NCBI RefSeq assembly: GCF_006345805.1
Contig: NC_043019.1
Coordinates: 16,925,360 to 16,989,359 of the forward strand
DNA from: Octopus sinensis
Lineage: Eukaryota
Length of the DNA: 64,000 bases
Direction: 5' to 3'
A program made the translations under genes and the position numbers. A model generated the notes under the pieces. It did not search any database. It was not told the DNA's origin and saw only the letters and a list, made by a program, of their open reading frames with translations. Shown here one piece after another: positions 21,318 through 59,305 of the stretch. Position 1 is the first letter of the stretch; each line of letters opens with the position of its first letter.

Positions 21318-21397
21318 TTAAGCATCAGATGGATTTGACATTTTCCCTTCAGACTTATGAAAATTATCTCCACTATTGTAACCAGGAGATGAACCAC
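21318..21397 (-). CDS. tra/BCLAF-like gene, last coding exon
   Basis: cttttcttttgtag|[26 protein letters not shown] after an 88-nt intron. Confidence 0.8.
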
Positions 21398-24300
21398 CTA
21401 CAAAAGAAAAGATGAAAATATTTATTAGAATAAGAGGGAAATTAAAACCAAAACAAGTTTTATTAAAAATTTATATCCTGCTCACCTCTTCCACGGCCTC
21501 TTCTGCTTAGGGAACCTCGACTTTGGCTGCGAAATCTTCCAATGGGTCTTGAGGATCTTGATCTGAAAGCACCCCGCAGGATACTGCCACGTTTGATCCC
21601 CACAGGGGTTTTTAATAAAGCTGGTCGATGAGAAAGAGGCCCACGATAGTTCTGCCTACTGTCATGGCGAGGACTACCCTCGGATTTAGAGCCAAGCTAT
21701 TAATAATAACAAAATATCACAATGAAAAACATGTTTTCAATCACAGCTCACAGATAATTCAACACAGGAAAGTATTTCTAGCAATGATGTTTCTTTGTGT
21801 ATCTTGTAGAGAGATAAGAGAAGTCCAGTTTAGAGCTAGCTTTGATCCAACCATGACCATGCAGACTATTTTCTCTTTTACTCTTTTATTTGTTTCAGTC
21901 ATTTGACTGCGGCCATGCTGGAGCACCGCCTTTAGTCGAGCAACTCGACACCAGGACTTATTCTTTTGTAAGCTCAGTACTTATTCTATCGGTCTCTTTT
22001 GCTGAACTGCTAAGTAATGGGGACATAAACACACCAGCATCGGTTGTCAAGCAATGCTAGAGGGACAAACACAGGCACACAAACACACACACGCATACAT
22101 ATATACGACAGGCTTCTTTCAGTTTCCGTCTACCAAATCCACTCACAAGGCTTTGGTCAGCCCGGGGCTATAGTAGAAAACACTTGCCCAAGGTGCCACG
22201 CAGTGGGACTGAACCCAGAACCATGTGGTTGGTAAACAAGCTACTTACCACACAGCCACTCCTGCACCTCATGCAGACTATTCTAGTACATTATTTACAA
22301 TGGACAGACAGGTGCCCTCACCTTGTTTGTTGTTTCCACAATGTTTCGGCTGGTGTACTCTCCAGCCTTCATCAGGTGTTCTGGTGGAATTTCAAACCTA
22401 ACCTTTTATTTGACTAATGGGGTACTCTGTTCTCATTCCTAAGGTGTGTTGCTGATGTTATTTTTCAGTCCCCTACCTGGGACTGACCAAAAAAATAATA
22501 TCAACAGAAAGAGAACATCAGCAACATACTTTAGGAACGAGAACAGTGTACCTCATGAGTCAAATAAAGGGTTGGGTTCAAAATTCCTCCAGAAAACCTG
22601 ATGAAGGCTGGAGAGTACACCAGCCAAAATATTGTGATGATAACAACAAACAAGGTGAGGACACCTATCTGTCCATTGTAAATAATGTACATAATCCTTC
22701 GTCTCTAAAATACAGAATAGACTAATTTAGCATTGTTGGAAATATAGTTTTGAAGTAGAATTTATTTGTTGCATGGTGTGTAGTAGACTCAACAATTAGG
22801 TAATTAGTGAACAAATTAAACTCACCTCATGGAAACCCCTGCTTCGATTATTTATGTCATGGACATCTTTCCAATCTGAATATTTATCTGAGGAGACACA
22901 TTAAATTTTTAAGATAATGAAATAAAATAGGAAAGAATCTTGTATAGAGACAAGCACTAAAATAAACGTATATATGTATACAGCAACAGATAACAGTTTC
23001 AAATAACACCACAGAACATTTTTAAAGAGATGAGTATCAGTGAAATCAGCCATAGATAGCTTGTAAGGATTATCTGGAGGGTGGGCTGGGGTTATACACT
23101 TGACGAATAAATCTTTCAAATGATTTACATTCCTGAAACAGACACTCTCTTTACTCTTTTACTTGTTTCAGTCATTTGACTGCGGCCATGCTGGAGCACC
23201 GCCTTTAGTCGAGCAAATCGACCCCAGGACTTATTCTTTGTAAGCCCAGTACTTATTCTATTGGTCTCTTTTGCCGAACTGCTAAGTGACGGGGACGTAA
23301 ACACACCAGCATCGGTTGTCAAGCAATGCTAGGGGGACAAACACAGACACACACATACATATATATATATATATACATATATACGACGGGCTTCTTTTCA
23401 GTTTCCGTCTACCAAATCCACTCACAAGGCATTGGTCGGCCCGGGGCTATAGCAGAAGACACTTACCCAAGATGCCACACAGTGGGACTGAACCCGGAAC
23501 CATGTGGTTGGTTAGCAAGCTACTTACCACACAGCCACTCTTGCGCCTATGAATTTAGTTTCAAAATTAATTTACTGTTAGGAGAACAATATTCAGCTTA
23601 GCTTTGTCAATAATAGCAGTCACTAGTGATGCAAAACTTGGTTGAGTTCACCAAATAAGGTTGAAGTAGTAAAGCAAGCAACAAAATCACGAGGAAAAAT
23701 ATTTCCCACCATAATGTCTTTCAATGCTTTCCTGAAACACGACCTGGACTCAGTTTGCCATGAAATCGTTTACAAAATAACTATTATTTAGTTGATGAAG
23801 AAGTAATGCACATTACTTTTGTAAACCTTTATAGATCAGTGGAATTGGTAAGCTAACCAAGAGCAATGAAACTCTGCCTAAAATGAAGGTTTGGGGGCTT
23901 AATCACAGTCTGAGCAGTAGACAGGTGATATACAAGAAATACAGACTTTAAGAAAACAAACAGAAAAAAAAAAAGGCTGGATTAACTCTGACAAAGTTTT
24001 CCTTAAATGCCAAATTTTAGAAATGAATTTCCAAAGTCCAAAACAAGCCTATTATTTGAGCCCTTATCTGAGTTATATGAACCCATGAAAACCAATGTCA
24101 TCAAATCGTTCAATTCATCATTAATTATAACACTGTTTTACCTCTTATCCTAGCATCGAACCATTATTTAACTTTCCAGTCCACATTATTGGTCATCAAA
24201 GCAGATATATTGCAAAGGAGATGTTGTATTAGTTAACAAGAAACTAATTATTAAATGAAATGAGATGCTGAAAGAAAACTACTCACCAGAATGCTTGGAA

Positions 24301-25895
24301 AAACTTAGAGCAGGATCTGAAGAAGTTTTGGAATATTTTGAATCTGAAATGTTAAGCAAGCTCTTAAGTTATTTTTGGATTTCTTTACCTAATGAACTTC
24401 TGTAACAATAATAAAAGTGGGTTAGTTTTAACAGCAGCAGACACTTATTTATCTTACTTTGATTATAACAGCAAGTTGAGGGGGAGAAAGAGAGAATCAA
24501 TTTGCTTTAAATAGACTTCCATGTTGAATGTAAAAGACAGGCTGTTACATCAACGGACTCTAAGATCAGTTCCTCGTAAACAGACAACTACAGTTCTCTA
24601 ATTTTCTTTTTTAGTCATCACCTAACATTTTTAAAAATATATTTTCAGTTTATAGTTTTCAAATAAGCAAATGATAAAATAAGAATTTAAAATAATATTT
24701 ATGCAACAAAATATCTCTATTCTATTTTCAATTATTTCATTCCCCAGTAAAAACCAGTGAAGCTGAAAAAAAAAAAACATATTTGGCAGGAAATTGATTA
24801 GAAAGTAACAGGATTATCAATCAATGCAACACTTACCTAAAAGATTAAAAGATGAAAGCAATTGGGTTTTGTTGTACATCGACAACAGAACCAAACTAAT
24901 GAGAAACGAAACAGTAAGGGTGATGAATATATCTGACTGGAAGAAAGAAAGGGCCATGTTCTACCTAAGGAATTCAGTATCCAGTTTATTCTTTCACTGG
25001 AGGTCATGCTGGGATATCGCTTTTGGGGGTTTAGTTAGTCATATGACCCCCAGTACATATTTTATCATCTCTATTTCTTGAAGCATTAAGTTACAGAACA
25101 CAAAGGAGGACAATATGAACACCAACATAGAGAGATGGCTAGAAAGAGACAAGTGGATAAAAATAGGACATACTGAGACATTGATGCTACTTAAAAACCT
25201 TGTCTGTTTAATTAGCACCTGTAATGATGTTTGAGATTGAACCAAAAACTTAAAAGTTAGTTTGGTCCATGAGGTTTACATCACAGACACCATCATCATT
25301 TAACGTCCGTTTTTCAAGTTGGCATGGGTTGGACAGTTTGACATAAAGCTGGCCAGCTCGGGACCTGGCCAGAGTACAACTGTCTGTTGTGGCATGGTTT
25401 CTAATGCTCAAAGCTCTTCCTAATGTCAACCATTTAACAGAGTGTGTTGGGTGCTCTTTATGTAGCACTGGCACACGCGCGAACAGAATACATCAACCTG
25501 TTTGTGCTTAGGGACTGACAATAAAATAGTAGAAACATCACAATAGAAGGGGATTCCATGGCAGTCCGCCTAAAGTGTAACTGACAACATGACTTGCCAG
25601 CAATTAATCTTTTCTCTTTCAAATTCATGTTTATGTAGTCTTATGTCATTTACAGATTATCCAAAGCGAGGATTCTACAGCAGTCAACCAGTACTAAGGG
25701 AAAACAAACTGAAAGTTACACACAACTGTTTCAAACCAAATTTGAAGAGGATCTAATTACACCACGGGAACAGCCTTGTCTGCTGAAGATTTTCTCAGGA
25801 AATTTAGACATTTTCATTACAACTAAAAAACATGTAACCAAGGAAACCACAGAAAAATGCATTTAAGTTTTCAGCCCAAGGAGACTGAATATATA

Positions 25896-28900: not shown

Positions 28901-31900
28901 TACACTCTTTAGTTCTTGAGTTATCCAGTATATTCAACCATTTTTAAGATGGCAGGCAAAGCTTGAGGGTGATTTTGTTGCTATTTCTAGCAGGTTTCTT
29001 TTGATGTAAAACTTCATATAGAATAATATAATAGTCTGGTACTTTGGGAGACCAAACTTATTATTAAAATAGTTTTTTTTTATTATTAAAAAAAAAAAAG
29101 AAAGAAAAAAAAAAGAATTGCCTCAAATTGTTCCTTTGAAACCAATCACTTTTGTTATGTTAAGAATAGTTTTGTTTTCGTTTTGAATGTTTATTCTTGC
29201 AGTAAAAGACTTCCTGATAACTTCAACATTCTCATTATTAACAGTCTGTGTTCATCCAGGTGTATTTGCTGTCAAAGATTAATTGATTTCATGAAACAAG
29301 GTTTAGGGATATTTTGTTCGAAATATGAAATACAAGCTGATGAACCCATAAACCTTATTCATATTTTGCATTCAAATAAATCCACGATTGTGTAGTTTGG
29401 TACTTTTGTTCTTTCTTTTCACCAACAACTGAAGTTTAGAACAGAACCAGCAAAGTTGCGAGTTCAGCTGCAAACATTTGTTGTTTTCGTTTTCTTCTTT
29501 TTTTTCCCCTCCATATTTTCTGTAGAGACTTGATTCCTTCGAAATGTCAAACCACATTTAACACTGCTGCCATTGCAGTGACTTATGAAAGTTCGTTTCA
29601 CATCACAAGATTGGATTCATAGCAAACAGTTGTTGGAGTCGGACTCTAGTCAGACTCATAGCAGACTCTGTGAATATTTCCAGTTGTGTGGTGCAGTGCA
29701 ACAGCTTTTCAAACGATCAAAAATTTTAATATGCAAAGATGGGACTCCCTCCATTCATGGTCTTACCTCTTCTCTTTGGAGTGTATTCTCGATCAAAATA
29801 ACTCCCATCTTGATATCCACTTTTTCTCCTAGAGATAAACAAAAACACAGCTAGAAGCAAACATAAATGAACAGAATAATATGAATATAAAGTATGGCTT
29901 CTATGCATTTCCTCTCAGTTTAAGTGTTGGATGTGTATACATGTAAAGCATAAGAGATGACAGCTTCTTTCAGCAGGGCAGGTTTTTATAACTTGAATGG
30001 TGTGTAACATGTATTTGGATATGATGTGCTGCAGTGATTATTTTTATGGGAAATACTTCTCCCAAACGCAAAAACAACAAACCAAAAGACAAAACCCTCG
30101 ATAGCAAAGTGACAGTACTACCCACTTTATAGATTCGTAGAACCCGATTTAATACTTATCCAATGTAAGGCAGCAAGCTGGCAGAATCGGTAGCATGTCA
30201 GACAAAATGCTTAGGGGCATTTCATCCATCTCTGTGTTCTGAGTTCAAATTCCACCAAGGTCGACTTTGCTTTTCATCCTTTCGGGGTTGATAAAACAGG
30301 TGTCAGCTGAGTACTGGGGTCGATATAATCGACTTACCTGCTGCTCCCGAAATTGCTGGCCTTGTGCCAAAATTTGAAATCAATACTTATAATCCAGTTT
30401 TCCAATTATAAGTTAAACAGTGACAATAGATTTTTCACTGAGTGACAGAGAGAGAAAGAGAGAAAGAAAGCGGGAGAGCACTTGCCATTTAGCTTTAGGA
30501 TTGTATGATTCTCACCACAAAATGATCTTTGAGAGGAAATGTGGAAGAAAATAAGGAGAAATAAAGCCTTAGTCGTGAATATTCTCTCAGGAGTTGAAAC
30601 CTAAAACAGCAGTTGGCTGCTGCTGTTAGTGTTTTGCAACAGCAAAGGCTCTTTCCTGATTCTCATCAACAAAATATGCAACATTAAAAGAGAACCGTTG
30701 CACATTATGCCTGATGTCTTCGTGCAAATTCTTACCTAAATTGCACAACAAAATCCTGGCCATTCTAAATATTTAGAATCATTGTAGTAGATGGAAATTA
30801 TCAAAGTTTTCCAGACTTCAAAAGATGGTCAGTTTGTTAGATTTCTCCAGTAAAGCCTCAAAAGTATTAAATTATAATTCAAATTCCATGGCTTCTGTAT
30901 TTTCTACTCATCATCTTCTGGTTTGTTGTCATGTCTGCTCCTCTTCCTTTCTTCTTAACATGTCTCTCTCTTACAAAACAACACGCTAGCTTTAAACATT
31001 ATTTTGTATGGCTAACATTTTGTTGGGTTCACACCAAACAATAAACGAAAGATTTGAAATGAAATAGCATTTCATTTCTATCGTTTCCTTTTGCCGCTTA
31101 CAGCCCACAGCCAAACATGTAGTGTGTGTGTGTGTGTGTGTGTGTTACAAAAAAAAAAAAAAAACACTAGCAAAGAAAGGAGAAGCTCGTCATGTAAATG
31201 CTGCTCATTAACCTAAATATTTATAATGATGATAGAATAAATTATTATTGTGTTCCAGTGTTCTTCTTCAGAGTCCCAGAGTAAGGGTTGCCCTCTGCCA
31301 AAAGCTCGTGTATAGGTTTGTATTTATCAGCTGTAAAAATAGAGTTTTACATGCAGAAAGAAGTTCTTGCCTGGGCCCTTGCTTCCAAGAAATCCACATT
31401 TCTTGCAATATTCCTCGTTTGTTGTTGAAGTGAAACAGTGTCCCTCTTCCTATGCAGGCAATGCCACACCTGTTGTTTATCGGTGTCATCCCACCTGTCA
31501 TGAAATCTCAGTGATTCAGTCACATGGACATCGACTCTGAAAGGGCTTCTCTTGTCAGATGTGGTGATGCAGACAGTAAACAATATTGGTAACAGGGCAG
31601 ATGATGTGGACGTTACAAAGAATGTGACAGGCCAGCAATCAACAACATATGCGTAAATACTTCAAAGGAATAAGAAAGGATTTCCCCAGCATTGCAGGTT
31701 TCAGCTAATAGGCAATAAAACACCAATAAAACTGTTCGCCCAAGACATCACAGTGTACTATAACCTTCATTGATCTTCGGAGACTTTCTATAGGTAACAG
31801 AATAGAATTTTCCTTTCTTTGTAATTCATTTGTTTGTATCTGGAATAATACAGCAGATGCAGACTAAACTGGCCACTCAGCTAATTAAAAAAAAACACTC

Positions 31901-34900
31901 ATTATTTAACAAACTGCAATCACTCTAATTAACCATGTCAATGGTTTGTTTTCTTTGCATCGTCAGCCATTCCAGTGGTTTCTTCTGCTCATCTGAAGTA
32001 GGGAGTTCCATCACCCCTTTTGTCTTCTTGCACTATCTCACCATCAGATCCTCCACCAAACACCTTGTCCAATCATTCCAACTTCAAGCGAGTCCACCTC
32101 TTGAAATCCATTCCTCTTAACGATCAAGAGGACCAACAAACATGCATGGTCATTGCCATGTCCACTTCAGATTAACAAAAGAACAACAGAGCACCTCTGA
32201 CTGTCTGTTAGGGTCCACCTGGAGAACCAGAAAACAACTCATTCCTAAGCAGTATTGACAGAATCAAGAATCTCTTCAATTACTTGGCAATCCATCGAAT
32301 CTCACCTGTATACACCTTTAATATCAAATACTCGATCGTGTATCAGTATTATACTGCAACTAATCTTCATAAAGAATATACAATATTCATTCTAAAGGTA
32401 TTTAGGTTCTTAACTCTTCATGAAATAACTTGTCTTTACAGAAATACTTAAGAATATTTACCCATGCAAAGGATCTTACTTAAAGATGCACAACATTGTT
32501 ATATTTATGTAATTTAAATTCTAAACACAGATGGGTTTAGAAATCAAAAAACTAATTAATTAGCTTAGGCCGAGAGACTGGACAGCAGCAAATGTTTCAC
32601 AGAATATTTACTATTTACAACTCAGAACTGGTGGTGTTGATTCCAACCCTAATAGTCCCTTCCCTCCAGTTGTGCAGCCGAGTGGCAATGTCAAGAACTG
32701 ATAACTACAATTACGTTAGGGTTAGGGTATTTTAAAAGAAAGTACTTACCTTGGAGATCCTGCAAGCCTGGCGCTAATACTATGGCGCAGGTCATCAGGA
32801 TTATGTTGCACACGTTCCATCCGCTCCCAATCCCTTGACTCACCCCGGCTGGATTCAGGATATGCAGGCATTCCACTACCATAGTAGTGTGGAGAACTAT
32901 TTAGTGGCCTCATCCTTAGATAAATAAGAAATGGGATAAGGGCTTAACGCTTACTAAGAAATCAACAAGAAAATCAATCCAGAATGTGAGCCAAGTTTGG
33001 AATGGTGCTTACACAGTAACATACATCATCAGTAAAACACTGCAGCAAGAATACTGCTTCAATGAATAACATTTTCCCTTCATCCACGTTTATTTATGAT
33101 GTAGAAATAGAAGCTAATCAACTGGATTTGGAAGATATGTTAACAATATTGAATTCTTGAGGATTTTTCATTTGTATAGAATTCTAGCCAACTGCTTGTT
33201 TGACACTTTTATGTTAACATGCAAGTATTTCATCAATTGATTGAATTCTTGGAACTAATGAATGTGGTCTTCAACCAATTTATAAAATTTCTTTTAATGT
33301 TCTTCCAAAGAAACACTATTTCGCAATGTCTCATTTTGCTGCAGTATTTTCTATCTTTCTTTCTTTTGGTATCTTTCGAAACTCTTAAAATCATCCATGA
33401 ATTTTTGTCCTTCTTTCGTAAGTGGTAAATGTTGAAACAGCTTCTCATGTTTATTAAAATTTAAATACAATTTTTCAAATATTTATCATTGAATGAAGTT
33501 TAAAGAGAATTGTATTTTTTAAAAATGAATTCTCAAAAGTTCTGGTTGTATATTTTTCCTTTGCAATTGTGTGTCTGTGTGGATGGGTTAATTTTTTTGA
33601 TGATATAGAAACATTTCACAGGGAAATCCCTTTTAACAGGGCACAAAGAATTCATGGAATTGGTAATTTGTACTTTGTTAAATGTTTCTGACTTGTTTTT
33701 CCATGAAAAGCAGTTCGTTAATGGCAGTCAATGTTTTGACAAATTACATTTTCAGACAAATAAAACCATTTCATCTTCCTCATCCAAATAGTGAAATGTT
33801 ATCGATATTTTTTATCAAACAGATTTGATAAACTACAAGTTAAGCAACAACCAATTCCTCTTAATTGTAAACAGTTCAAACATTAGAATAACTTTTTTAT
33901 GCTATAAAGAACCATTATTTTCTGTAAGTCACAAAAAGATATTGTTCATTTGTTGTTTTTTGATATCTTGTGCAAGGTTTCAATGGCAAATATTGTGTAA
34001 CTGTTTCCTTTTCCCCCCTTATATATACACACACATACACATATATATATCCAGTCCCAACTTAGAAATTTAAGAAACAAGTTTAAACAATCAAATCAAA
34101 GAAACCTGTCTCAAAATTTGATTTAACCAGCAAGAATTCAGGAGGGTTGCTTTTCCAAACTCTTTGTGTAATATATTATTTAGTTGATAATATTTTTATG
34201 TTTGTTTGTATTTTAGACATATGATTAAGTATGCACACTGAGTAGATGTAATTTCTTAAAGAGAATCAAAGCTACATTAAAAGACTTTCTGGTGTTTGGT
34301 TAGTTTCTAATTGTCAATATTTAGTTTAGTTATAAAGAGATTCTGTCTATATTAAAAGTGGTGCCATCATAGTAATCTATGATGTACCAATTCCAGGAAA
34401 ATTTTCACTGTTAATTTCTAAAAAAATATTTCTGTTTGGGTTTGTACCTCCCCCCCCCTCTCCTCATTACAATCCCGCTTTTTGGTGTCATTCACGCAGA
34501 TATACTCTTTTCTCTCTTTTACTTGTTTCAGTCATTTGACTGCGGCCATGCTGGAGCACCGCCTTTAATCGAGCAACTCGACCCTGGGACTTATTCTTTT
34601 TGTAAGCCCAGTACTTATTCTATCGGTCTCTTTTGCCGAACCGCTAAGTAACGGGGACATAAACACACCAGCATCGGTTGTCAAGCAATGCTAGGGGGAC
34701 AAACACAGACACATATATATACATATATACAACAGGCTTCTTTCAGTTTCCGTCTACCAAATCCACTCACAAGGCATTGGTCGGCCTGGGGCTATAGCAG
34801 AAGACACTTGCCCAAGGTGCCACGAAGTGGGACTGAACCCGGAACCATGTGGTTGGTTAGCAAGCTACTTACCACAGAGCCACTCCTGCGCCTATATTTA

Positions 34901-36166: not shown

Positions 36167-39100
36167 ACCAGCCATAAATTAAAAAAAAGAAATAATGTAT
36201 TATTACATTATGAAGTTTTTTTCTTTTATAAATTGTTCTTTTTATCTTGTTTAGAAGAAAACATAATCTGATTGCTTCAAATAGGTAACAAGATGGAAGA
36301 AATATTTCCCCAATATAAAATATTTTCACTGACAAACAATAGGAGTTGTTAATCAGTTATGGCAAGAAAACATCTTCTCTTAATGCATGAAAATTTTCAA
36401 TATTTCTTTGCTGATGCCAAACTCTTTGTTTTCAAAGACAAACAGTGCACACAATCATTAAAATTGGGGTAAAATACAGTCAATAATTTTTATCATTTTG
36501 AATTTACGACAACAATAACCTCCATTCTGTAAAATTTCTGCCCTAGATCAAGTAGCTCTAGGAGTACCCCAGCTTTATTGTCTTTAGCCATTGTGTTTCT
36601 TGGAATTCATTATACAATGTCCCCTTCTCACTTTCAAAGAAGGTTGGGAATTATTTCTAGCAGATTTGAACGACCACTTAGAGGCTCTTTTGTTGGTTTA
36701 TTTTCCTTTCTTTTTTTTCTATAGACTTAATAAAAAAAATTTTAAATATTTTTTTCCTTTCTCGTATATTTAATCATTGTAGATTTTGCAGATTTCACAG
36801 TTTTAAATATTTCATGATTTCTAATCATAAATTGCATATAATTTCAGAGCACTGTTTCCCATGCTGCAATCATTTCCGAATATGAATGAGTTCAAATCTT
36901 GCCAAAGTCAACTTTATCTTCCGTCCTTCTGGTATTGATTAGAGAGGTATCAATACCCAGGTATTGATCCAGTTCACCAGACAAATCTATGGCATCATGG
37001 TGCCAATGTTGCAATTCATTGCCTTTCTTATTAAAACGGTTTGGATCACCAAAAGACTGTCTTTTTTTGTTTTTTTTTTTACTTTTTAGTTGTACCACAT
37101 TCCTGGCAATAATCATAATTAATTGCATCAAGGTCATTATTTAACTCTAATTAGACTTTGTAGGTAATAGTAATGTTCTACCAGGGCACGACCACTTACA
37201 TGAATAAAAGACATGAACGTCCTCAAAGAACGATATGAACAAATCTAGTTTCCATCACATACACAGAGAGGGAAATGTGGCTAAGTCACTGGGTAACAAA
37301 ATAATTGGTAGCTGTGGCATGAGAAATTCATTAATAGATACAGCAAAATATAAGTTCAGAATGAAATTTTGTCAGATTAAAGCATTTAGGAAATTAAGCC
37401 ATTGCTGATAACGAGAACTGGGATTATCATCAGCCCAGTAAATGAACTGATTTCTATTAGAGCGAACCAAATGAAAATAAAATAGCAATTACCACGGAAT
37501 GAGCACAAATTATCAAAACAACACTTACCTGCTTTCTCCCATCCAGCGATCATGGCTACTTCTTTGATTAGATAATGACCGAGAGCCTTCATATCCTTCT
37601 TTAGGATTTCTATAAAAGATTTCCATCAAATCCATCAAGTAACTTCATTAAATCTTGGGTTTGCAATGGCTTTTAGCTTCAGCAAAACTATTTTATTTTT
37701 CTCAAAACTTAATTTTAATTTCTATGAATACAAATAAATATTTGATCAGAGCAATAAATTTCGGTTACAATTCTTTTATTCATTCATGTGTTTCAGTCAC
37801 AGGACTGAAGTCATGCTGGAGCACCATCTTGCAGGAACAAAGCTATGTTTTTTTTCTTTTTGAAGTGTGCTACTTGTTCCATTGGGCTCCTTTTGCCAAA
37901 TAACTAAGTTACAGGGATGTAAACAAACTGACACCGACTTTCAAGCAATAAAGGGCAAACACAATACGTGCCCCCACACACACACACACTTTTATTACAC
38001 ACCTGCTTCCCTTGCTTGTTTTGGTAAGACAAATAAATTGTTTTATCCTTGCCTGTTTTACAAGTAAGGGATCTCTAATGCTATACGACTTTGAAAAGCA
38101 CAGAGTGAGTGCACCAGGCACAACTTCTGCACAAGCAATCATAGATGTAAACACACACACACACACACACACACAGCTGACCCAGGGCTATAGTAGTAGA
38201 TCCTTGCCCAAAGTGCCATGCAGTGGGACTGAACCTGAAACTATATGGTTGTGAAGTGATCTTCTTAACCACACAACATGGCCTATGCCTATTGTGTGAA
38301 TAATTTACACAAGAGAAACATTTATTTATTGAAAATCTGTGTTAGGAGCAGGTCGATAATGTAAACAATATCAATGAAATAGTATGTTGTCAACTGAATG
38401 TGACAGTCCCATGAAAGGGAAGAATGCTACTGTTATTTAGCCCTAGGAAACAAAGTATCCTGTTGGACTGGACACATTTCCTGTATCCTTATGTTTTCAA
38501 AGTGGAGACAAGCACCCCCACCCATCCACTAGTGTTCTTCCCTTTCATGGGACCGTCACAAGTCGACAACATACCACCACTTCATTCGTGCTGCTACTGC
38601 ATAAATCTGAGACATTTAGAAATGTATTATTTCTAATATCAATGGACTTTTAGACTGTGGTATTTCGTCCAGGTAAGGTCACTTTAAAGAGGGAGAGTGT
38701 TAAAAAAACACAATGTACCTCAAAAACCAGAGGAAACGTATGACAGATATTGATATTTCACTGTTATTTCTGCTCATCGGTGCCATGTACTGGATTCACT
38801 ACCAAAGCAAAATTGAATTGCTGGTCTCAAGTTTCAAAGCATTTAACAACACTCATACATTAAATAAGTAACATGGAGAATGTTTACATTAAAGAACTGC
38901 TATGTAACACAAAATCTGCAATTTTGTTTTATTTGCATATCACTTTTGCAGATCAGCAGATATATTTTACACTCCCTGTATATCTGTTTATACTACAGAC
39001 CAGCAATTCGAATTTGGAAATGAATTGAATATATGGAATTGATGAGCAGAAATAACTGCAAAATATCAATGTCTGTTGTTCTCGTTCACCTCCAGGGCAA

Positions 39101-42100
39101 TTTGTTTCACCTGCCTTTGAGGTATTCTGCAATTTTTTAAGCCCTGTAAGTCTTTAACCCTTTTGTTACCAACCCGGCTGAAACCGGCTCTGGCTCTGAG
39201 TACAAATGTCTTGTTTTCATAAGTTTTAAATTAAAATTTTCCACTAAACCTTAGTCACAATTTATGTTCCTAACACTATCTGAATGATAACTAAGTTATT
39301 TTACTAAATCCTTTGTTAGATTTAAAATTTATTGAAAGAAACACAGAGTATCTCAAAATAAATACAGTAACGAATACAGTAATGAAATACCACAACCTAA
39401 AAGGTGTTTAATAGCACACATGCATTATGTGACATTAACAACTTATTTATTGGGCAAATGCAGTTGTAATACAACCTTATTTACTGATCTGTCACAGTAC
39501 AACTGTTACATGATCTGTTATAAGAAAATGTTTACTGACCTGTCATAGTAATATTGGTCATCATTCCATGAGTGAGAATAGGGTGGTGACCTATAGCCAG
39601 AGCTATAGGGGCCATCATCATTCATTTCACGGTAATTATTTCTTTCATGAGAATCTACTGTCACAACTCGAAGTTCTTTGTAGTCAAGTTCTTCTTCTCC
39701 TGCATCAATAAGATCATACTGGCGGAGTTCCTCTCGATCAAATATAGGCCTTGTTCCTTCATTCTTCTGACGGATCATCACAAAATCATAGGGATTAAAC
39801 TCCCGCCGGACAGGCTGAGGAGGAGATCCAGATGCTACATGTGAATTTCGATGAATCCCAATTGTAATATTTTCATCAAAACGGAAAGGAGTATCTGGTT
39901 CAAGCATTTTAAAGCGTTCAGTCAGACTGCACCGTCTCTGGTTCTGTAGGTAGGCCCTACCAAGAGCCACACGGCTGTAGCTATCTTCAGGAATTAAAGC
40001 ATGTGATGACTGATAAGATCCTTGGGCGTAACCTGAAACCCCTGGAGACATTTTCCTACTGTTGAACGAAGGAGGTAATGGGTTATCATGATAGCTAGAA
40101 AGAGAAGTGTGCTGAGATGAATGACCAAATGGCTGTCCTGATGCTTTGTAACTGGAGCTCGGCTGTCCACCATAATCCATAGATGACATAGAGGGCACCA
40201 CTTGCCTGCTGCCACTGCCCCACATGGGTGACCTATGTGATAGAAATTAGGTAATAGTTACAATTCAATATTATGGATGGCACTTCTGAAATATTCAATA
40301 TCAAAAGATAAAATAAATAATGAAAAAAAACTAGGATTTCACAGATTATTTTCAATAAATACAGATAATAAAAATATCATTGTATATTAAAAAAAACTGA
40401 GAATGATGATGGCTTAAGATGACAAAAGGTTTGAAACACCAATTCAGATATATATCTGGAAATATGTTTGGAGCAGAAATATCTTGGCTCAGAGCCAAGT
40501 TTGGTTTTCTTTTCAAAACAAATCATCTGCACAGGTTGTTCAGAAAGAGTTTGCAGAACAATCTTGTCTGTCGTTTATGGTATGCATGTCTGTGGAGTAC
40601 TCAGCCACTTGTGAGTTAATGTTGTCCTCGTGTAGTAATGAAAATTGAAAGTGACATCCAATATCTGCTGTAGTTATTTCTCTTTGATTTACCAATGTGT
40701 CCATGTATCTATTTTCGCTTCGATGTATTTATCAGTCCACTCTGAATACAGTGATAAACATTTAGAAACAAAAAAATGCCACCTTCCTTTCAGTCACCAC
40801 TCTCTGTCTCTCCTCTCTCCCACTTTGCCACTCACTTCAACTATACCTCCTCTGCTTAATTCCTTTTCTCTTTTCTGTGTACCACTCCCTTCAACCTTTT
40901 TACCCCTTCTTTGAAGCAAGTGTGACACACACCACAGGTACATACGTAGAAAAACAAAAGTTAGCATATCAATATTTAGGATAAAAATTGTTTGTTTAAC
41001 AATAAATGCTTAAGGAAATGAAGAACTACTACCAGAGATATTGACACTGAACAAAAACCTGGTGCAATTTATTGGTCTATTGTATGCATTGTTATTATTG
41101 GGGTTGGCCAAAACGTCCATTTGGTTTTTTAAGCATAAATAAGAAACAAATTTTAAACACAAAGCTATTTATTCAATAAATGATATAATTGCCATCTAGC
41201 TTCAGTATCTTCTGCAATCTTGGGAGCAGATCCATTATTCTCTGTTCAAAGAATTCCATCTTCACTAGCAAAGAACTCTTTCAGGTGGATTCTTATGTCC
41301 TCTTCAGAGCTGAATGTCTATCCATTCACTGAATTTTGAAGAGACTGAAACAAGTAGAAATCTGAAGGTGCAAAGTCAGATGAATATGGAGGCTGAAGCG
41401 TTTGCAAAGAGGTGTGCAGCCTGACAGGATCATGAAAGACAATGCCCTAACAATTAGCATGTTCTGGATGCTTCTGGCGAATCACTACATTTAATTTGTC
41501 CTACTCGTCACAGTACACATCCAAATCAATGGTCCTATTCATGAGAAGAAGCTCATAAAAGGCAACACTTTTCCAATCCCCATCAAAGTCCAATTTTGGA
41601 GGTTGCTTGTGGTGGTTCACCAAGCTTCTCCCATGGTCGTTTGCACCTCACATTGTTATAGACAATCCATTCTTCATTCTCTGTCACCATTCTCTAGAGA
41701 AAAGCACCTCTGACATACACAACACATATCTTTCTACAGGTGTCTGCTGGTTTTTAACCCCACCTTGTTTTTTCTTAAATAAAAAAGTATGACATGCCAA
41801 TAATGTTTGTTTTGCTTCTCCATTTTCAGAGTGATCTCCAGCACACAAAATACAACCTGTCTCATCATAAGTTCATGTTGAACTACGTTAGTGTGTCAGT
41901 TAATTAACGAGTAAAAATGTGCAAAGGAAAGAAAAAATAAAGGAGGAGGGGGGGAGTGCGATGTCATATGCCTAAAACATAAGCCAAAGCAAAAAGGAAA
42001 CTCTTTGGCCAACCCAATATAATACAATGGCTGTTTTTCTGTTTATGACATTAACAGGGAAAAGTTGAATCAAACAAGTATTTTAATGTTGATGACACTA

Positions 42101-45292: not shown

Positions 45293-46203
45293 GCATAGGA
45301 GAGCGGGTAAATGAACATTGGAGACAACTCAAGGAAGGTAAAAGCTCATCAATTCTGTACCAACACGCCGAACAGGAACATGGGGGATCAATTAACAACA
45401 TAGAAATTAAAATATTGTCCACACATAGAACAGATGCAACAATCAGACAAATTACAGAAGCTGTACACATAATAGAAAATAAACCTAGCCTGAATAGGAA
45501 ACTAGAACGGAACACTAGCACACACCATAACATATGACGGTAGAGGATCCCAATAAACTGGTTACAATATATAAACAAAACCGAAAACATAAAACATAAT
45601 AAATAAAATACACAGATAAATAGTTTTTTAATTTTTTTTTTGTTTAATTTAAAAGATTTTTTGGATTTATTATTATTATTACTAGTATTGTTGTTATACA
45701 TACAAGCATACGTAATGATAATAATAATAAGTGGATGTAAACACAACAAAAACAACTTACATAAACGTATATAAACAAGAGATAGAAATATTACAGGCAT
45801 TCCACTCACCCCCCTCCACACACATACACAATAACTAAACATAGACGCACATAGAGATATAAGCATGCGCAAAAGAAGACATACAATAGAAATACAAAAT
45901 GGCAGACGGTTAGTAAGGAGAGACACAAATGAGAAAGAAGAAAACAAAGGACCACTGATGCGGTCACAGGAGTGTGACGAAAGAACTCTGGCCGAAATAA
46001 GATTAAGATTAATGTAAAAAATAAATAACACTGAAGCAAAATAACACCAAATATATATAGTGCATGTGTTTTTATTGGCTAAACTGGCAAAATGACTATT
46101 CCGAAATATAACAATATCTGTTTCAACACACGACTTCACATAAAAAATCTTGCACAACAATATATAAATATATATATATTAATATATATATATATACATA
46201 TAT

Positions 46204-46251
<48 letters not shown>

Positions 46252-46312
46252 CTATATATATATATACATATATATATACATATACATATATATATATATA
46301 CAATATATATAC

Positions 46313-46343
<31 letters not shown>

Positions 46344-46682
46344 CAATATATATATATATATACTATATATATATACATATATATTACATATATATATATA
46401 TACATATATATATACATATATATATATATACATATATATATACATATATATATACATATATATATACATATATATATACATACATATATATATACATATA
46501 TATATACATATATATATACATATATATATACATATATATATATACATATATATATATATACATATATATATACATATATACATATATATATACATATATA
46601 TATATATACTATATATATACATATATATATACATATATATATATTATATATATACATATATATACATGTATATATATACATC

Positions 46683-46714
<32 letters not shown>

Positions 46715-46794
46715 TATACATGTATATATATACATCTATATATATATATATATACATATATATACATGTATATATATATACATGTATATATATA

Positions 46795-46830
<36 letters not shown>

Positions 46831-47112
46831 ATATATACATGTATATATATACATCTATAATATATATATATATACATATATATATATACATGTATATATA
46901 TACATCTATATATATATATATACATATATATACATGTATATATATACATCTATATATATATATATACATATATATACATGTATATATATACATCTATATA
47001 TATATATACATATATATACATGTATATATATACATCTATATATATATATATACATATATATACATGTATATATATACATCTATACATATATATATACATG
47101 TATATATATACA

Positions 47113-47154
<42 letters not shown>

Positions 47155-47271
47155 CATATATATACATATAATATATACATACATATATATATACATACAT
47201 ATATATATATACATATATACATACATATATATATATATACATACATATAATATATACATACATATATATAC

Positions 47272-47305
<34 letters not shown>

Positions 47306-47862
47306 ACATACATATATATATATACATATATATATACATATATATATACATATATATATACATATATATATACATATATATATATATATACATATATATA
47401 CATGTATATATATACATCTATATATATATATATATTACATATATATACATGTATATATACATCTATATAATATATATATACATATATATACATGTATATA
47501 TATATACATGTATATATACATCTATATATATATATATACATATATATATACATGTATATATATACATCTATATATATATATATATACATATATATACATG
47601 TATATATATACATCTATATATATATATATACATATATATACATGTATATATATACATCTATATATATATATATACATATATATACATGTATATATATACA
47701 TCTATATATATATATACATATATATACATGTATATATATAACATCTATATATATATATATACATATATACATGTATATATATACATCTATATATATATAT
47801 ATACATATATTACATGTATATATATACATCTATATATATATATACATGTATATATATACATC

Positions 47863-47922
<60 letters not shown>

Positions 47923-48098
47923 ACATACATATATATATACATACATATAATATATATATACATATATACATACATATATATATACATACATACATATATA
48001 TAATACATACATACATATATACATACATATATATATATACATACATATATATATACATACATATATTATATATACATATATATATACATAATATATAC

Positions 48099-48131
<33 letters not shown>

Positions 48132-48674: not shown

Positions 48675-48707
<33 letters not shown>

Positions 48708-48781
48708 CATATATATACATATATATATATATATATACATATATATACTTATACATACATGTATATATATATACATCTATA

Positions 48782-48813
<32 letters not shown>

Positions 48814-51800
48814 CATGTAAATGTAAATTTAAAATAATAAGGGTGAAAATTTGAATGTCAATTTGATTAATATCAATTTAAAACCAGTGGTGTAGCACAT
48901 TGAAAAGTCTGAAGTTTCAGAAAAATTTATATTACATACATATAAGAGGAATGTCCGCTTTTAGTTCATGCCACTTATATAATAGTTTCACTTTAATAGT
49001 TTCAGTATTAAAGTGAAAGCATTTAACATTACAATAGAGAGATGTTTTTGTTTCACTTTTGACATGTAATACTGAAATAGTGGAGAAGATATAATATTGC
49101 TATGGGCTCGCCCTAGGCAAGAAGTTCAAATTTTTTTTTGCCCACGACACTCCATGGACCCTAAGTAAGGCATGAGTAAAATTTGAATGAAATTGGTTGT
49201 GTAGTTCTCAAGTTTTAGGGATTCACAGACAGACAGACACACATTCTCAGTTTTATATATATAGATACATACACACACACATATGTACATATATATATAT
49301 GTACATATGTGTGTGTGTGTGCACATGTCTTCTTGTCTTGAAGTCGTGAGGCTGTTGTAAATGGCTAGCATTCCATTTCCAATATTCTGCAAAAGAGCAT
49401 CTGGCTATAGAAAATCTGCTTTAATAAACCGTCTGCCAACACAAGCAAGGAAAAATGGACACGAAAATGATGACGATGATGGTGATAAGCATCATGATCA
49501 CCTGAATAATTAATTTAATGCTTACGCAAAAGTTCATATCTAAGATGGGTTTTTTTTGTATATAGTTGCGTGTATGTTTCGTTTAATACAGCCTTAATTC
49601 ATTAATATTCATGGTAAAAACAAAACAAATAAATGCAAATTATAGAATGAATTTATAAAGCTTACTTGGATCGTCGCTTCATATTAACAGGACTACGTCT
49701 TGAAATTGGGCTGAAACCTTTCCTAGAATGATCCCGACGGCTGTAGCTGTCGTGATGAGAAGGTGGAGAATATCTATGTCGCCGGGATACAGACAATGTA
49801 CGGTTTGGGCTGTGAGCAGAGGTCATGTGTGAAATTGGCGACCTTGAATGGCGTTCCACCCTTGTTGTAGCGCTGGACCGATAATGACTAACATGGCTAT
49901 ATGGAAGGTATGTGTCAGTGTGATGGTGGCTCTCTTTGCGATGGTAGAGAGAGAGAGACTTGGAGGGAGGAGGAGATCTATCTCTGAAAAGAAAGAAAGA
50001 AAAAAAATTAACAACTAATTAATATTCAACACAATTAACATTACTATCTTTTATCTCTTATCTTTTTACGTTTCCCTTATTAGACTGTGGCCATGCTGGT
50101 GCACTGCCTAGAAGTCTTTGTCAAATGAATCAATCCCAGTTATGTTTTTTTTTTTAAATCTAGTACTTATATCTGTCTCTTTTGCCAAACTGCTAAGTTA
50201 CACAACAACACCAGTTATCAAGTGGTGGAGGGGGAAGACACACACACACACACACATATATATACATATATACGACGGGCTTCTTTCAGGTTCTGTCTAC
50301 CAAATCTACTCACAAAGCTTTGGTCGACCTGAGGCAATAGCAGAAGACATTCACCCAAAGTGCCACACAGTGGGACTGAATCCAGAACCATGTGGTTGGG
50401 AAGCAAGCTTCTTACCACACAGCCGTGGCTGGGCCTATATATTAATATCAAATCACTGCATTCATCTTCAACAAAGCAAGTCAATCGTTGCTTTACATTT
50501 GATCGCAAACAGCTCTTAATGACAAAGATGATGGTTGAACAGAAATTAATCAAACTTCATCATGAACAATTTTTCACCAAAAAACTACAAGAATTTATCC
50601 TAAAGTAACTTACCCACTTCAAAGCATTCTTGCCTTTCACGCTCTGCATTCAAATAATGCTTTCAGTGTTTTCATAAGAATGGAAATTATTTCTTAAATA
50701 TAAACTTTAATAAGAATTCTATCAGAGGTTGCCTACTCCACGGATCCAGTGAGTCATCATAATTATTGTATTAACAAGTTTTTCTATGTTAGCATTGGTT
50801 TCAAATTTTGGCACAAGGCCAGCAATTTTGGGGAAAGGCCTAAATCGATTACATCAACCCCCAGCCCTCACCTAATACCTATTTTGTTGGCTCTGAAAGA
50901 ATGAAAGAGCAAAATCGACCAACGTGGCATTTGAACTCAGAACGTTAAGATGGATGAAATGCCACTAGGCATGTTGCCAAGTGTGCCAAAAATTCTGCCT
51001 ACTCGCTGCCCTCGTTGGTGCTATATTACATTAACATGATAAGCATTTTGAGAAGGAACAGCAGCAACAACAACTGACTCGTATACCTATGTGTGTTATC
51101 TTTCTGTTCCTCTAGCTCTGGCTAGTGGGCTGTAGCCATACAGCCATCCATGTTGCAAAATACTTTGCTCTCACCTCGGTATTTGGTGGATGAGGCAGTT
51201 TGATGCAGTCGCTCATTGTGCATTTGTTGCTGTGAAATAAATTCATTTGGGATTTTACTTCATCAAAATGCCTGACCGTTGTTTGAACTTACTAGCATCA
51301 ACAGTCTGCAGAATGCTCAATTTTATGAAGATATTTAACAGCTGTAGTTTAGCCTGGCATGTGTTGGGCTCATGATGATACAGAATGTGGGTTCAATTCC
51401 TGGCTTTTACAGTACACTGTGTTCTTAAGCAAGGCATTTCATTTCATGTTGCTCCAGTTTACTCAGCCCAAAATAAGTACCAGCTCAAGCAGGTGCAACC
51501 CTTCCTCCTCTCCACTGTCACATTCTACATATTCTACTGGGTCAAGGAGTAGGAGGGCAGAAAGAATATCTATACCTGCTCACAACTAGTTAGGTACCTG
51601 AAGCAATTAATGAAAGCACGGTACATACGACCAAACCAGAATTGCAAGTTGTGGTTCTTTTCCTTTTCTGGTTTTTAAAACAAGTTGAATGGAGAGAGTA
51701 AAAATTTGGACACTTAGCGTTAGGCAGTTGGCAGATCTGCATAGTTCCCAGTATTGAAGTTTGGTGCCAACCGTTCTAAAAATCTTGCAGCTGCAAATTA

Positions 51801-55037: not shown

Positions 55038-55811
55038 GCAAACACGTACATACACACACACTGTACGATGATGAAGAAGAGAGGTTTTCGTGTGAGGACA
55101 GGTCGCTTTTACCATATTACCGAAAACTGAAAGCGCGAGTAGTAACGTTCATTCATATCTTAAACATATTATTCGTGGTTGAATATTGAATAAAAATAAG
55201 GAGATTTCATAACTGCTTCTTAAAATTTGACCAGACATATTTTAGCGAAAGCAAAAATCCTTGAAATTATCTCTTGAGATCTTAATAGGAAAAAAAAGCG
55301 ATCACTTCGAAAGGTCGGCAGCAACAGACCTTTAATACACAATTGACATTTTTAGGATGGTTTAAGAAAATGTTACACCAAAATTCATTTGAAAGAATGC
55401 TGGTCCAATTACTAATAATAAAAAATAATTTGTTTCATATATAATACACCTTTAGGACACAATTCCGATCAAATAATGTGTGAATATGTCACTAATATTA
55501 GGTTTTTCTCCTCTTCTATTCTTGAAATGACATTGATTTCTATTCTTGGAATGCTATTAATTTTTATTTCCTTGCATATAATTTACAATCAGTTTGTGCT
55601 ATATGATGAGTTTTACTTTCGAGAATTGAAATAATTAATAATAATAATAATGAAAGAAGAAAGAGGAAGCTTTCTGTCTGAATCGAAACCGCTAAATTTT
55701 GTTTTGTATAAGTTTAGCTTCCGATAATATTATGAAGGCAAAAATCATAAATAGAAATATTTACCTCCGATCCTTTCTGTGTCCAGGAGATCTTCTTTTC
55801 GGTAGTGGCAT
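21318..55811 (-). CDS. RS/RG-rich nuclear protein with a Transformer/Feminizer CAM-like domain and BCLAF1/THRAP3-like motifs, 591 aa, 10 coding exons
   Basis: complement(join(21318..21397,21486..21696,22826..22887,24287..24343,29767..29828,32750..32914,37529..37609,39540..40232,49666..49983,55765..55811)) = 1776 nt open frame, all introns GT-AG with matching phases. Many RS/SP dipeptides and a C-terminal RG tract. Confidence 0.85.
21486..21696 (-). CDS. tra/BCLAF-like gene, exon 9 (RS/RG-rich)
   Basis: taatag|[14 protein letters not shown]...[27 protein letters not shown]|gtgagc, phase 0-1. Confidence 0.88.
21871..22269 (-). mobile_element. tRNA-derived SINE (family A) with 13-bp TSD
   Basis: TSD catgcagactatt at 21858-21870 and 22270-22282. 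Confidence 0.92.
22287..22718 (+). mobile_element. Second, diverged copy of the palindromic hammerhead-containing element
   Basis: Inverted arms carrying CTGATGAA-ggctg-gagagtacac-cagcc-GAAA (the minus copy at ~22337-22380 is the more intact). Same kind of 3' extension, with an imperfect 12-bp TSD agactattctag / agactaatttag. Confidence 0.78.
22826..22887 (-). CDS. tra/BCLAF-like gene, exon 8
   Basis: ctcctcag|[21 protein letters not shown]|gtgagt, phase 1-0; the other two frames are closed. Confidence 0.82.
23145..23547 (-). mobile_element. tRNA-derived SINE (family A), full length
   Basis: Near-identical to the copies at 21871 and 34505. Other diverged copies at ~37790-38290, 44870-45204, 50061-50435, 56717-56930, 6150-6370(+) and 9400-9615(+). 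Confidence 0.92.
24287..24343 (-). CDS. tra/BCLAF-like gene, exon 7
   Basis: catttcag|[19 protein letters not shown]|gtgagt, phase 1-1 (skippable in frame). Confidence 0.7.
25935..27711. mobile_element. Penelope-like element 3' remnant with long inverted pLTRs
   Basis: Inverted arms ~26063-26570 / 27235-27711. The spacer encodes GIY-YIG-type remnants (minus: [33 protein letters not shown]; plus: [16 protein letters not shown]). Each arm has a hammerhead-like motif (26126-26182 -, 27598-27636 +). Flanked by TA repeats. Confidence 0.8.
27734..28260. mobile_element. Palindromic PLE-type terminal insertion with hammerheads
   Basis: Inverted arms of ~217 bp (27734-27951 / 27974-28190) plus an extension, between TA repeats. 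Confidence 0.8.
28076..28162 (+). ncRNA. Hammerhead ribozyme with long stem II (mirror copy 27761-27851, minus strand)
   Basis: aattgg-CTGATGA-gagctcagcatc...gatgtagtac-GAAA-cgatcg-TA-ccaaatt, with palindromic ACGATCGT in stem III. Confidence 0.75.
29767..29828 (-). CDS. tra/BCLAF-like gene, exon 6
   Basis: ttatctctag|[21 protein letters not shown]|gtaaga, phase 2-1 (supplies the required phase change). Confidence 0.82.
30167..30382 (+). mobile_element. tRNA-derived SINE (family B)
   Basis: aaggcagcaagctggcagaatcgg...gagttcaaattcc...cttgtgccaaaatttgaaatc. Confidence 0.88.
32750..32914 (-). CDS. tra/BCLAF-like gene, exon 5
   Basis: tttatctaag|[12 protein letters not shown]...[21 protein letters not shown]|gtaagt, phase 2-2. 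Confidence 0.85.
34505..34892 (-). mobile_element. tRNA-derived SINE (family A), full length
   Basis: Same consensus as the copy at 23145-23547. Confidence 0.92.
37529..37609 (-). CDS. tra/BCLAF-like gene, exon 4
   Basis: ttttatag|[27 protein letters not shown]|gtaagt, phase 2-2. Confidence 0.82.
39158..39375 (+). mobile_element. TTAA-type (piggyBac-like) MITE, 3'-clipped
   Basis: Starts ttaa|cccttttgttacc. A related 3' end at ~3075-3228 finishes ggtaacaaaacgg|ttaa. Confidence 0.55.
39540..40232 (-). CDS. tra/BCLAF-like gene, exon 3 (CAM-like domain)
   Basis: tag|SPMWGSGS...SLTERF...ITIGIHRN...[25 protein letters not shown]...YYYD|gtcagt, phase 2-2. Confidence 0.92.
41098..42017 (-). mobile_element. 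Decayed mariner (DD34D-type) transposon
   Basis: TIRs ttggggttggccaaa / tttggccaacccaa flanked by TA. Minus-strand remnant [20 protein letters not shown] matches the YSPDLAPSD motif. Confidence 0.82.
42409..43220 (-). mobile_element. Decayed Tc1-related transposase, DD37E (TRT-like)
   Basis: MHDNTLSH...[15 protein letters not shown] has 37 residues between D and E. Upstream fragment [15 protein letters not shown]. Confidence 0.8.
43385..44583 (+). mobile_element. Composite repeat: tRNA-SINE head, pyrimidine-rich insert with ~60-bp tandem repeats, RTE-type tail
   Basis: Head gcaggcatggctgtgtggttgag at 43385; repeated ctcactgtatcattgctatctgc..ttccaccca at ~43690-43862; tail ending gttaaatgatgatgat. 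Confidence 0.6.
45288..46155 (+). mobile_element. Penelope-like element 3' fragment (GIY-YIG C-terminus, 3' region, degenerate hammerhead at 45949-45993)
   Basis: [10 protein letters not shown]...[11 protein letters not shown]...[19 protein letters not shown], followed downstream by ggacca-CTGATGC-g-gtcaca-ggag-tgtgac-GAAA-gaac-TC-tggcc. Confidence 0.78.
46158..48815. repeat. ~2.65-kb compound (TA)n/TACA microsatellite with a higher-order unit
   Basis: Recurrent tacatatatatacatgtatatatatacatctatatatatata. All YI/IY ORFs here are artefacts. Confidence 0.97.
49020..49265 (-). mobile_element. Helitron-like 5' end
   Basis: Minus strand reads A|TCTATATATATAAAACTGAGAATGTGTGTCTGTCTGTCTG (TC start plus GTCT microsatellite). 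Confidence 0.55.
49666..49983 (-). CDS. tra/BCLAF-like gene, exon 2 (RS/H-rich)
   Basis: ttttcag|RDRSPPPSK...RHSRSPISH...[15 protein letters not shown]|gtaag, phase 2-2. Confidence 0.88.
51945..53185 (-). mobile_element. Rearranged RTE LINE fragment (RT pieces and 3' tail)
   Basis: [18 protein letters not shown]...[15 protein letters not shown]...FVDMEKAF, the same family as 59306-61313. Confidence 0.9.
55765..55811 (-). CDS. tra/BCLAF-like gene, coding exon 1
   Basis: aag[18 protein letters not shown](AG)|gtaaat, in a CpG-rich 5' region. Confidence 0.8.
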
Positions 55812-59187: not shown

Positions 59188-59305
59188 GAAAATAAGAAAT
59201 CAGTGGAAATTTTACTGGTGAGTGTGTTAAATTATAAGGCACAAAAAGAAAATGACTCTCCCCAGACACAACAATATATATGTATGTATATATATATATA
59301 TATAT

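Follow-up and report, generated by a model that had tools for sequence, protein, structure and literature searches.

An autosomal octopus gene with a Transformer/Feminizer-type CAM domain, a likely relative of vertebrate BCLAF1 and THRAP3

The gene, its exons, and its transcripts

A stretch of 64,000 nucleotides from the Octopus sinensis genome (contig NC_043019.1, positions 16,925,360 to 16,989,359; hereafter the window, with positions numbered from its first letter) carries a gene for a protein rich in arginine/serine (RS) and arginine/glycine (RG) repeats, one exon of which resembles the CAM domain of the insect sex-determination proteins Transformer (Tra) and Feminizer (Fem). We regard it as likely that this gene, which is autosomal and single-copy, represents in the octopus a family of RS-rich proteins found across animals, Transformer/Feminizer among them, and that it is the probable counterpart of vertebrate BCLAF1/THRAP3. 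Its product is predicted to be a largely unfolded nuclear splicing co-factor that acts in both sexes, not a sex switch.

The gene comprises 10 coding exons on the minus strand, running from 55811 to 21318, and all nine introns have GT-AG ends. The joined coding sequence of 1776 nt yields exactly the 591-aa record XP_029649731.1, an uncharacterised O. sinensis protein (P0006 below). The exons are as follows.

55765..55811, minus strand: coding exon 1, N-terminal start
49666..49983, minus strand: exon 2, RS/His-rich N-terminal region
39540..40232, minus strand: exon 3, carrying the conserved motif array in full and unbroken, CAM included
37529..37609, minus strand: exon 4
32750..32914, minus strand: exon 5, a 165-nt in-frame cassette with an NPDDLRH motif at 32802-32782
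29767..29828, minus strand: exon 6
24287..24343, minus strand: exon 7, where the decayed HDxR region begins
22826..22887, minus strand: exon 8, decayed HDxR motif (FSK.SDKY..W retained, both prolines and HD gone)
21486..21696, minus strand: exon 9, RG-rich region
21318..21397, minus strand: exon 10, containing the stop and no WxHD motif

The CAM-like stretch itself, at 39725-39928 on the minus strand, consists of 68 stop-free codons that begin with SLTERF and lies within exon 3. The RS region, with 13 RS/SR dipeptides in the first 200 residues of P0006, is N-terminal of CAM. Modeling of the domain with AlphaFold2 gave three short helices and no compact fold (predicted TM score 0.24), as would be expected of a protein made up of short binding motifs in a row.

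Splicing of introns 3 to 9 was assessed from contig joints in four sequencing runs from four studies, which are presumed to be, and not recorded as, RNA and which carry no sex labels. Introns 3 to 8 are spliced in all four runs and intron 9 in three of them. Annotated 536-aa isoforms in two Octopus species skip exon 5 (165 nt); the corresponding joint was not among the 15 contig joints listed, beyond which there are 92 further joints. In a 392-aa record from O. bimaculoides, exon 4 is joined to exon 7 and the frame is shifted. Apparent RNA editing (T>C) at 21650 and 21657 was rejected because both changes equal species or allele differences in O. vulgaris records. The gene is present in a single copy: with three different queries, its locus on contig C23 was the only genome match with a significant E value.

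CAM homology and family breadth

A profile made from three cephalopod sequences was used to search 1.84 billion (1.84e9) proteins and returned 60 matches at E<=1e-3. Among these are named hymenopteran proteins from Nasonia (E 1.6e-22, with the Pfam family SDP_N), Colletes (2.2e-4, with SDP_N, Apis_Csd, and a Pro-rich tail), and Diachasmimorpha (5.7e-4), all recorded as uncharacterized and called Fem/Tra-type here by their Pfam content and layout, not by experiment. A reverse search with a profile of the hymenopteran sequences only recovers exon 3 from 2084 window frames at 36.5 bits (E 3.9e-10), with a runner-up at 4.1 bits; because the hymenopteran rows came from the octopus-profile search, the two results are not independent. 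Among 2000 local shuffles of P0006, none reaches the true score of 34.7 bits (995 were scored, the best at 6.2). In profile-profile comparison the CAM match stands at 97.7% (E 2e-12), against 0.1% for the reversed control, and the matches to cephalopod, bivalve/gastropod, chelicerate, and echinoderm groups, in which unnamed rows were labeled from the tree, lie at 96.9-99.1%, again with reversed controls at 0.1%. By sequence, exon 3 encodes a true CAM homologue.

The original prediction had proposed a CAM-like domain in exon 3 of this RS/RG-rich gene and membership of a lophotrochozoan tra family. The former is confirmed by the forward, reverse, and profile-profile tests, with a significant Tra/Fem CAM profile match found in both directions, and the latter is supported by the reciprocal profile and profile-profile matches. 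It had also noted that the protein has no insect-type Pro-rich C terminus, and indeed the C-terminal 80 residues are 7% Pro, whereas the figure for the Colletes protein (P0055) is 25%. The Pfam check it suggested came out differently, as the octopus protein gives no SDP_N (PF12278) match and the SDP_N profile finds nothing at the gene locus when run against the octopus genome. More broadly, no Pfam family matched exon 3 or the whole cephalopod proteins. UniRef has automatically named the O. bimaculoides protein 'complementary sex determination N-terminal domain'. Searching the PDB with the domain profile gave no match at E<=10, and all structure rows retrieved for the domain from the ESM Atlas had TM values below 0.5.

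The octopus protein shares with insect Transformer/Feminizer/Csd (SDP_N PF12278, Apis_Csd PF11671) an RS region and the CAM core elements IHR, NP, R, EG, and PIF[DE]REE. Unlike those proteins, it carries its RS region before CAM rather than after it. It also possesses LxxRF, DLR, and RG parts that are absent or eroded in the named hymenopteran rows.

The names, obtained for 13 of the 20 matches looked up, are those of molluscs (cephalopod, bivalve, and gastropod), chelicerates (spider and horseshoe crab), hymenopterans, a nemertean, and a crinoid; none of the matches was identified as dipteran. Searches based on protein words yielded only three clusters, all cephalopod. Molluscs, nemertean, crinoid, chelicerates, and Tra-type proteins have in common the order LxxRF, IxIxIxR, CAM, which in the octopus gene reads as follows.

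39911..39925, minus strand: LxxRF motif (LTERF, aa 225-229), counterpart of TLNER|F in mouse Bclaf1
39848..39868, minus strand: IxIxIxR motif (ITIGIHR, aa 244-250), likely counterpart of EIHRR in BCLAF1/THRAP3
39728..39796, minus strand: CAM core (aa 268-290), opening with NPYDF
39656..39676, minus strand: E-x-R-V motif that ends the array (aa 308-314)

Conservation was scored over 60 family rows. In LxxRF it reaches 85% for L, 80% for R, and 83% for F, and in IxIxIxR 93% for I244, 98% for I248, and 95% for R250. Within the CAM core, E280 (88%) and G281 (87%) are well kept, and R288 and E290 are invariant, partly owing to the way the rows were cut. Most full-length non-insect members additionally carry DLR[HY], HDxR, and WxHD. 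Among the 34 rows of at least 390 residues, DLR occurs in 20, HDxR with prolines at -12 and -8 in 19, a terminal WxHD in 22, and both HDxR and WxHD in 16. When Pfam was run on 59 matches, Btz was detected in 14 (12 over the cut-off), SDP_N was over the cut-off in six, three of them the named hymenopteran proteins, and both families were over it in two, P0037 and P0054. On the sequence evidence, then, the octopus gene is supported as a lophotrochozoan member of the tra family with a CAM domain.

Two quick trees were computed, both of them weak: the first used wide envelopes, an unfinished careful search, and 61 of 62 rows, and the second used 104 columns and 60 of 62 rows (P0051 and P0065 dropped). 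Both group P0037, P0054, and P0056 with the hymenopteran rows at SH-aLRT 85-86.

Two further observations concern CAM itself. Nine unnamed proteins (P0040, P0041, P0044, P0047, P0048, P0050, P0059, P0066, and P0068) form one clade (SH-aLRT 95-96) with an altered CAM core, in which Cys or Tyr often replaces IFD; P0065, of the same clade, retains HDxR and WxHD. In P0013 from Nasonia vitripennis, the CAM-containing block is present in three tandem copies, which may be real or an assembly artefact.

EJC motifs and a probable link to BCLAF1 and THRAP3

The HDxR and WxHD motifs connect the family to the exon junction complex (EJC). An HDxR motif with prolines at -8 and -12, followed by WxHD, has been named for BTZ, BCLAF1, and THRAP3 only, and WxHD binds the EJC component eIF4A3 (PMC4797287). 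Our family profile gives an alignment, albeit a weak one (E 0.019), to both CASC3 motifs in structures of the EJC from the PDB. The relatives of the octopus protein resemble CASC3/Barentsz/MLN51 with its SELOR module (PF09405; PDB 2hyi, 2j0u) in having both eIF4A3-binding motifs. Octopus CASC3, however, is a separate gene on contig C2. Moreover, 19 of 21 family rows, as well as human BCLAF1 and THRAP3, have a Trp at most six residues before the first Pro; neither human nor octopus CASC3 does.

The octopod proteins P0006, P0002, and P0003 are without HDxR and WxHD. A profile of the HDxR half scores 63 bits on P0004, an unnamed and more distant cephalopod-like protein, and at most 0.2 bits on Octopus and Argonauta. 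WxHD is found in none of these four proteins, and DLR is retained in all of them. A hidden exon with HDxR or WxHD was sought in the 64-kb window, and none was found. The named hymenopteran rows likewise have no EJC module, and the Colletes protein ends in its Pro-rich tail instead. Because the module occurs in mollusc, chelicerate, and echinoderm members, its sequence distribution makes it likely that it is ancestral to the family. Octopods have lost HDxR and WxHD, and the octopus protein may therefore look Tra-like partly through a parallel loss of EJC motifs.

Several lines of evidence connect this family to BCLAF1/THRAP3 (PF15440). The octopus protein shares with them an N-terminal RS region, the order LxxRF-IHR-DLR, and predicted disorder, and its relatives share the W-P-P-HDxR and WxHD motifs with an RG stretch between them. 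THRAP3 has an N-terminal RS domain that is required for splicing activation and a C-terminal MLN51-like part (PMC2879504). Cross-linked peptides from mouse Bclaf1 contain TLNER followed by F630 (PMC9270653), a hexamer identical to that of Argonauta, and TL.ERF is present in 12 of 62 family rows. Human BCLAF1 has IHR at 651 (PMC10196724), so that, with a +2 mouse/human offset read from shared STR residues, its F-to-I spacing is 19, equal to octopus F229-I248; this spacing is 18-21 in 35 of 43 family rows. The motif pair arose by chance in 23 of 200,000 random 920-aa proteins, for a pattern that was chosen post hoc. C-terminal of the array region, mouse Thrap3 carries PVDLR (PMC9270653).

An ESM Atlas search with residues 200-315, a part that does not include the Btz end, gave a best match of 0.91 with 178 shared features and PF15440 in 32% of its cluster, and a second match of 0.88 with PF15440 in 95%; all 10 of the 10 best named matches agree. 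Levels of 0.9 are also reached by 4-10 of 100 shuffles, a figure that does not cover protein parts, and this counts against the link; we regard the PF15440 lead from the Atlas as one of moderate strength.

Because the array, the EJC motif pair, the BCLAF1/THRAP3 peptides, and the Atlas features are shared, Transformer is likely to represent the BCLAF1/THRAP3 family in insects, as far as sequence can tell. The octopus protein itself gives no PF15440 score and has no HDxR or WxHD, so we file it not as a tested member but, with comparable assurance, as a probable divergent orthologue of BCLAF1/THRAP3. It further departs from these proteins in its length (591 residues against 920-955) and in having a clear CAM core. 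Taking the argument one step further, we consider it reasonably likely that tra, feminizer, and csd are arthropod orthologues of BCLAF1/THRAP3/BCLAF3, that the sex switch was built from an EJC-docking RS co-factor, that holometabolous Tra and octopods lost the eIF4A3 end in parallel, and that the array docks a conserved partner, most likely an ERH dimer.

The competing explanation that survives best accepts a true Tra/CAM family and denies its orthology to BCLAF1/THRAP3; the short motifs, serving common partners such as eIF4A3 and ERH, would have arisen or been shuffled independently. We judge this rather unlikely, and yet a number of results favor it and weigh against the orthology proposed above. 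PF15440 scores neither on the octopus protein nor anywhere in its genome, and it was found in only 1 of 59 relatives, at 17.5 bits and below the cut-off. There was no vertebrate protein among the nameable matches of the 1.84e9-protein search, none among the 15 candidates from a search with a relative's Btz region (none at E<=10), and no vertebrate BCLAF1/THRAP3 DNA in a motif pattern scan of metagenome contigs. From the hymenopteran side, an Atlas search with the CAM region of P0055, Tra families skipped, gave no usable match. WxHD occurs in ALYREF as well. The link to BCLAF1/THRAP3 consists of motifs, published peptides, and Atlas features rather than of an alignment score. The BCLAF1 stretch after IHR has no clear EG..PIFDREE, leaving the CAM core not recognisable, and the IHR-to-DLR distance is ~30 residues in Thrap3 against roughly 130-170 in molluscs. 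Shared synteny is missing also: the vertebrate neighbours MAP3K5 and MAP7 lie on C2 and C16 and not on C23, a difference that means little where the genome has been rearranged. P0037, P0054, and P0056, the SDP_N proteins that carry both EJC motifs, come from unnamed sources, their placement beside hymenopteran Tra has only the SH-aLRT support given above, and one of the trees draws a long-branched echinoderm pair into the hymenopteran group.

Independent origin, on the other hand, has to account for five motifs in matching order with one spacing equal, for the Trp found in the BCLAF1 type and not in CASC3, and for an Atlas match obtained from a part without the Btz end. In addition, PF15440 and Btz searches of the octopus genome, which are insensitive, returned no such locus besides CASC3.

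Sex determination, a proposed mechanism, and the surroundings of the gene

The original prediction had raised the gene as a candidate switch downstream of the cephalopod ZZ/Z0 system and had asked whether it maps to the Z. It lies off the Z contig, on C23. The Z corresponds to O. sinensis chromosome 20, with AMN and SPAG9 being Z-linked (PMC10925132; bioRxiv 10.1101/2024.12.09.627507), and in our searches AMN and one of two RH1 (SPAG9-type) matches fall on C20.

Insect Tra/Fem proteins are defined by CAM, an RS domain, a Pro-rich C terminus, a CAM junction before EG, Tra/Tra2 elements, sex-specific splicing with a male stop, and control of dsx (PMC6721801), and the Tra/Tra2 elements and the CAM junction are typical of autoregulating insect tra (PMC4736151). 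The octopus gene differs in that CAM lies wholly in exon 3, without an exon junction just before EG, and no sex-specific stop exon was seen. We scanned the sense strand of 21000-56000 (35 kb) with three patterns of 12-13 nt that we take to represent the Tra/Tra2 elements, and there were no matches; their 8-nt core occurs once on this strand and twice on the opposite one.

We consider it very unlikely that Z dose alters the splicing or level of this gene, which would then, like insect Tra, set the splicing of its targets by sex. CAM is intact, a downstream switch need not be Z-linked, and alternative isoforms are annotated, including the frame-shifted 392-aa form of O. bimaculoides. Against this, the gene is autosomal, Tra/Tra2 elements and the CAM junction are absent, knock-down of tra in Daphnia had no reported sex effect, and paralarval sex differences involve only 48 genes, of which 39 are on the Z and nine are autosomal. 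Hemichordate and echinoderm tra, which Suzuki et al. reportedly described in 2015 as encoding a CAM and RS protein outside arthropods, is said to be not sex-specifically spliced and unable to drive dsx splicing. Furthermore, dsx is arthropod-specific, and sex-specific tra splicing is a derived feature of holometabolous insects (PMC6721801). The evidence therefore does not support candidacy as a sex switch; in cephalopod sex determination the gene ranks as a weak candidate, and the result is mostly negative. The fallback that had been offered, a housekeeping splicing factor, fared better, since a general splicing factor is the likelier reading, but it had missed the BCLAF1/THRAP3-type family architecture. 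The last alternative, that the CAM likeness is a chance product of an Arg/Glu-rich disordered protein, might draw on the missing Pfam match and the shortness of the stretch, but it is refuted by the forward E value, the shuffles, and the profile-profile scores against their reversed controls, as well as by the octopus gene being the best and only genome match of P0037, and its probability is negligible.

The mechanism that we favor, a both-sex splicing co-factor, starts from the gene structure, CAM homology, family breadth, off-Z location, and octopod loss of HDxR and WxHD described above; all functions in it are transferred from vertebrates, which is a further point against it. The ancestral bilaterian protein would have had the layout RS domain, LxxRF, IxIxIxR, CAM, DLR, HDxR, RG, WxHD. 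Its RS end would activate splicing and promote retention in speckles, as in vertebrates, where splicing activation was demonstrated for THRAP3. Through its HDxR/WxHD end the protein would attach to the EJC by way of eIF4A3, as demonstrated for CASC3 and ALYREF; by this analogy, docking is expected for most invertebrate members, octopods excepted. The array in the middle would serve to bind partners. Vertebrates would have retained both ends while the CAM core eroded, the named hymenopteran Tra-type proteins would have kept CAM while the EJC module disappeared, and octopods would have kept CAM and DLR and independently lost the EJC motifs. Skipping of exon 5 would delete the DLR motif and could tune partner binding.

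No binding partner of CAM is known in the literature consulted. ERH is the lead candidate for the array, since cross-links of mouse ERH fall in the corresponding stretch of both vertebrate proteins: at Bclaf1 K620, immediately before TLNERF, and at Thrap3 K665 and K708, next to IHR and DLR (PMC9270653). The octopus genome (G000) contains at least four ERH-like loci, at 32.86 Mb and 42.79 Mb of C11 and on C8911 and C12467 (L010-L013). L013 is canonical, L012 is a close paralogue, and L010 and L011 are divergent with fewer introns. ERH is usually a single-copy gene. A recent ERH structure is available as PDB entry 9rmv.

A CAM domain outside arthropods is reportedly known already from the hemichordate work, so that a mollusc member alone would be a modest gain; that work is said not to connect it with BCLAF1/THRAP3 or with the EJC. 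How tra originated has been described as a possibly intractable question (PMC6721801), and CAM as having no resemblance to any other metazoan protein (PMC4736151). In the literature searched, a scope that did not extend to subscription journals, bioRxiv supplements, and orthology databases, we found no statement joining tra/feminizer to BCLAF1, THRAP3, or Barentsz, or placing an EJC module in its relatives, and the available portions of PMC8605363, PMC5699544, PMC12207402, PMC10057164, and 10.64898/2026.09.28.754972 state neither a Tra-BCLAF1/THRAP3 link nor an EJC module. The lophotrochozoan, chelicerate, and echinoderm members with both CAM and the EJC module likely form an evolutionary bridge from Tra to the well-studied human family of BCLAF1 and THRAP3. 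If so, the insect sex switch would have arisen from a general splicing factor, with the octopus gene as a clue to its origin, and BCLAF1/THRAP3 would gain invertebrate models. Testable questions would then include binding of Tra/Fem to ERH via the CAM array, eIF4A3 binding by crustacean or cockroach Tra, and the timing of the loss relative to the switch role.

The window also holds a neighbouring gene and several repeats. Downstream on the same strand, a multi-exon fukutin-like gene occupies 4600-12200 (minus strand), with FKTN_N over the cut-off in one exon and weaker in another. Intron 6 contains two inverted repeats that could form double-stranded RNA: a long one at 27700-28150, read by eye, with arms of ~200 nt around 27960, where RNA-like contigs show T>A and A>G changes, and another large inverted duplication at about 26170-26550 and 27290-27600. 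Remains of transposable elements lie at 52150-52950, 59300-60600, and 42400-43220, namely decayed reverse transcriptase pieces of long interspersed nuclear elements (RVT_1 at 59317-59940) and the relic of a DDE transposase. Intron 2 includes a TA-rich microsatellite of ~2.8 kb at 46000-48830, with a GC content of 11-13%.

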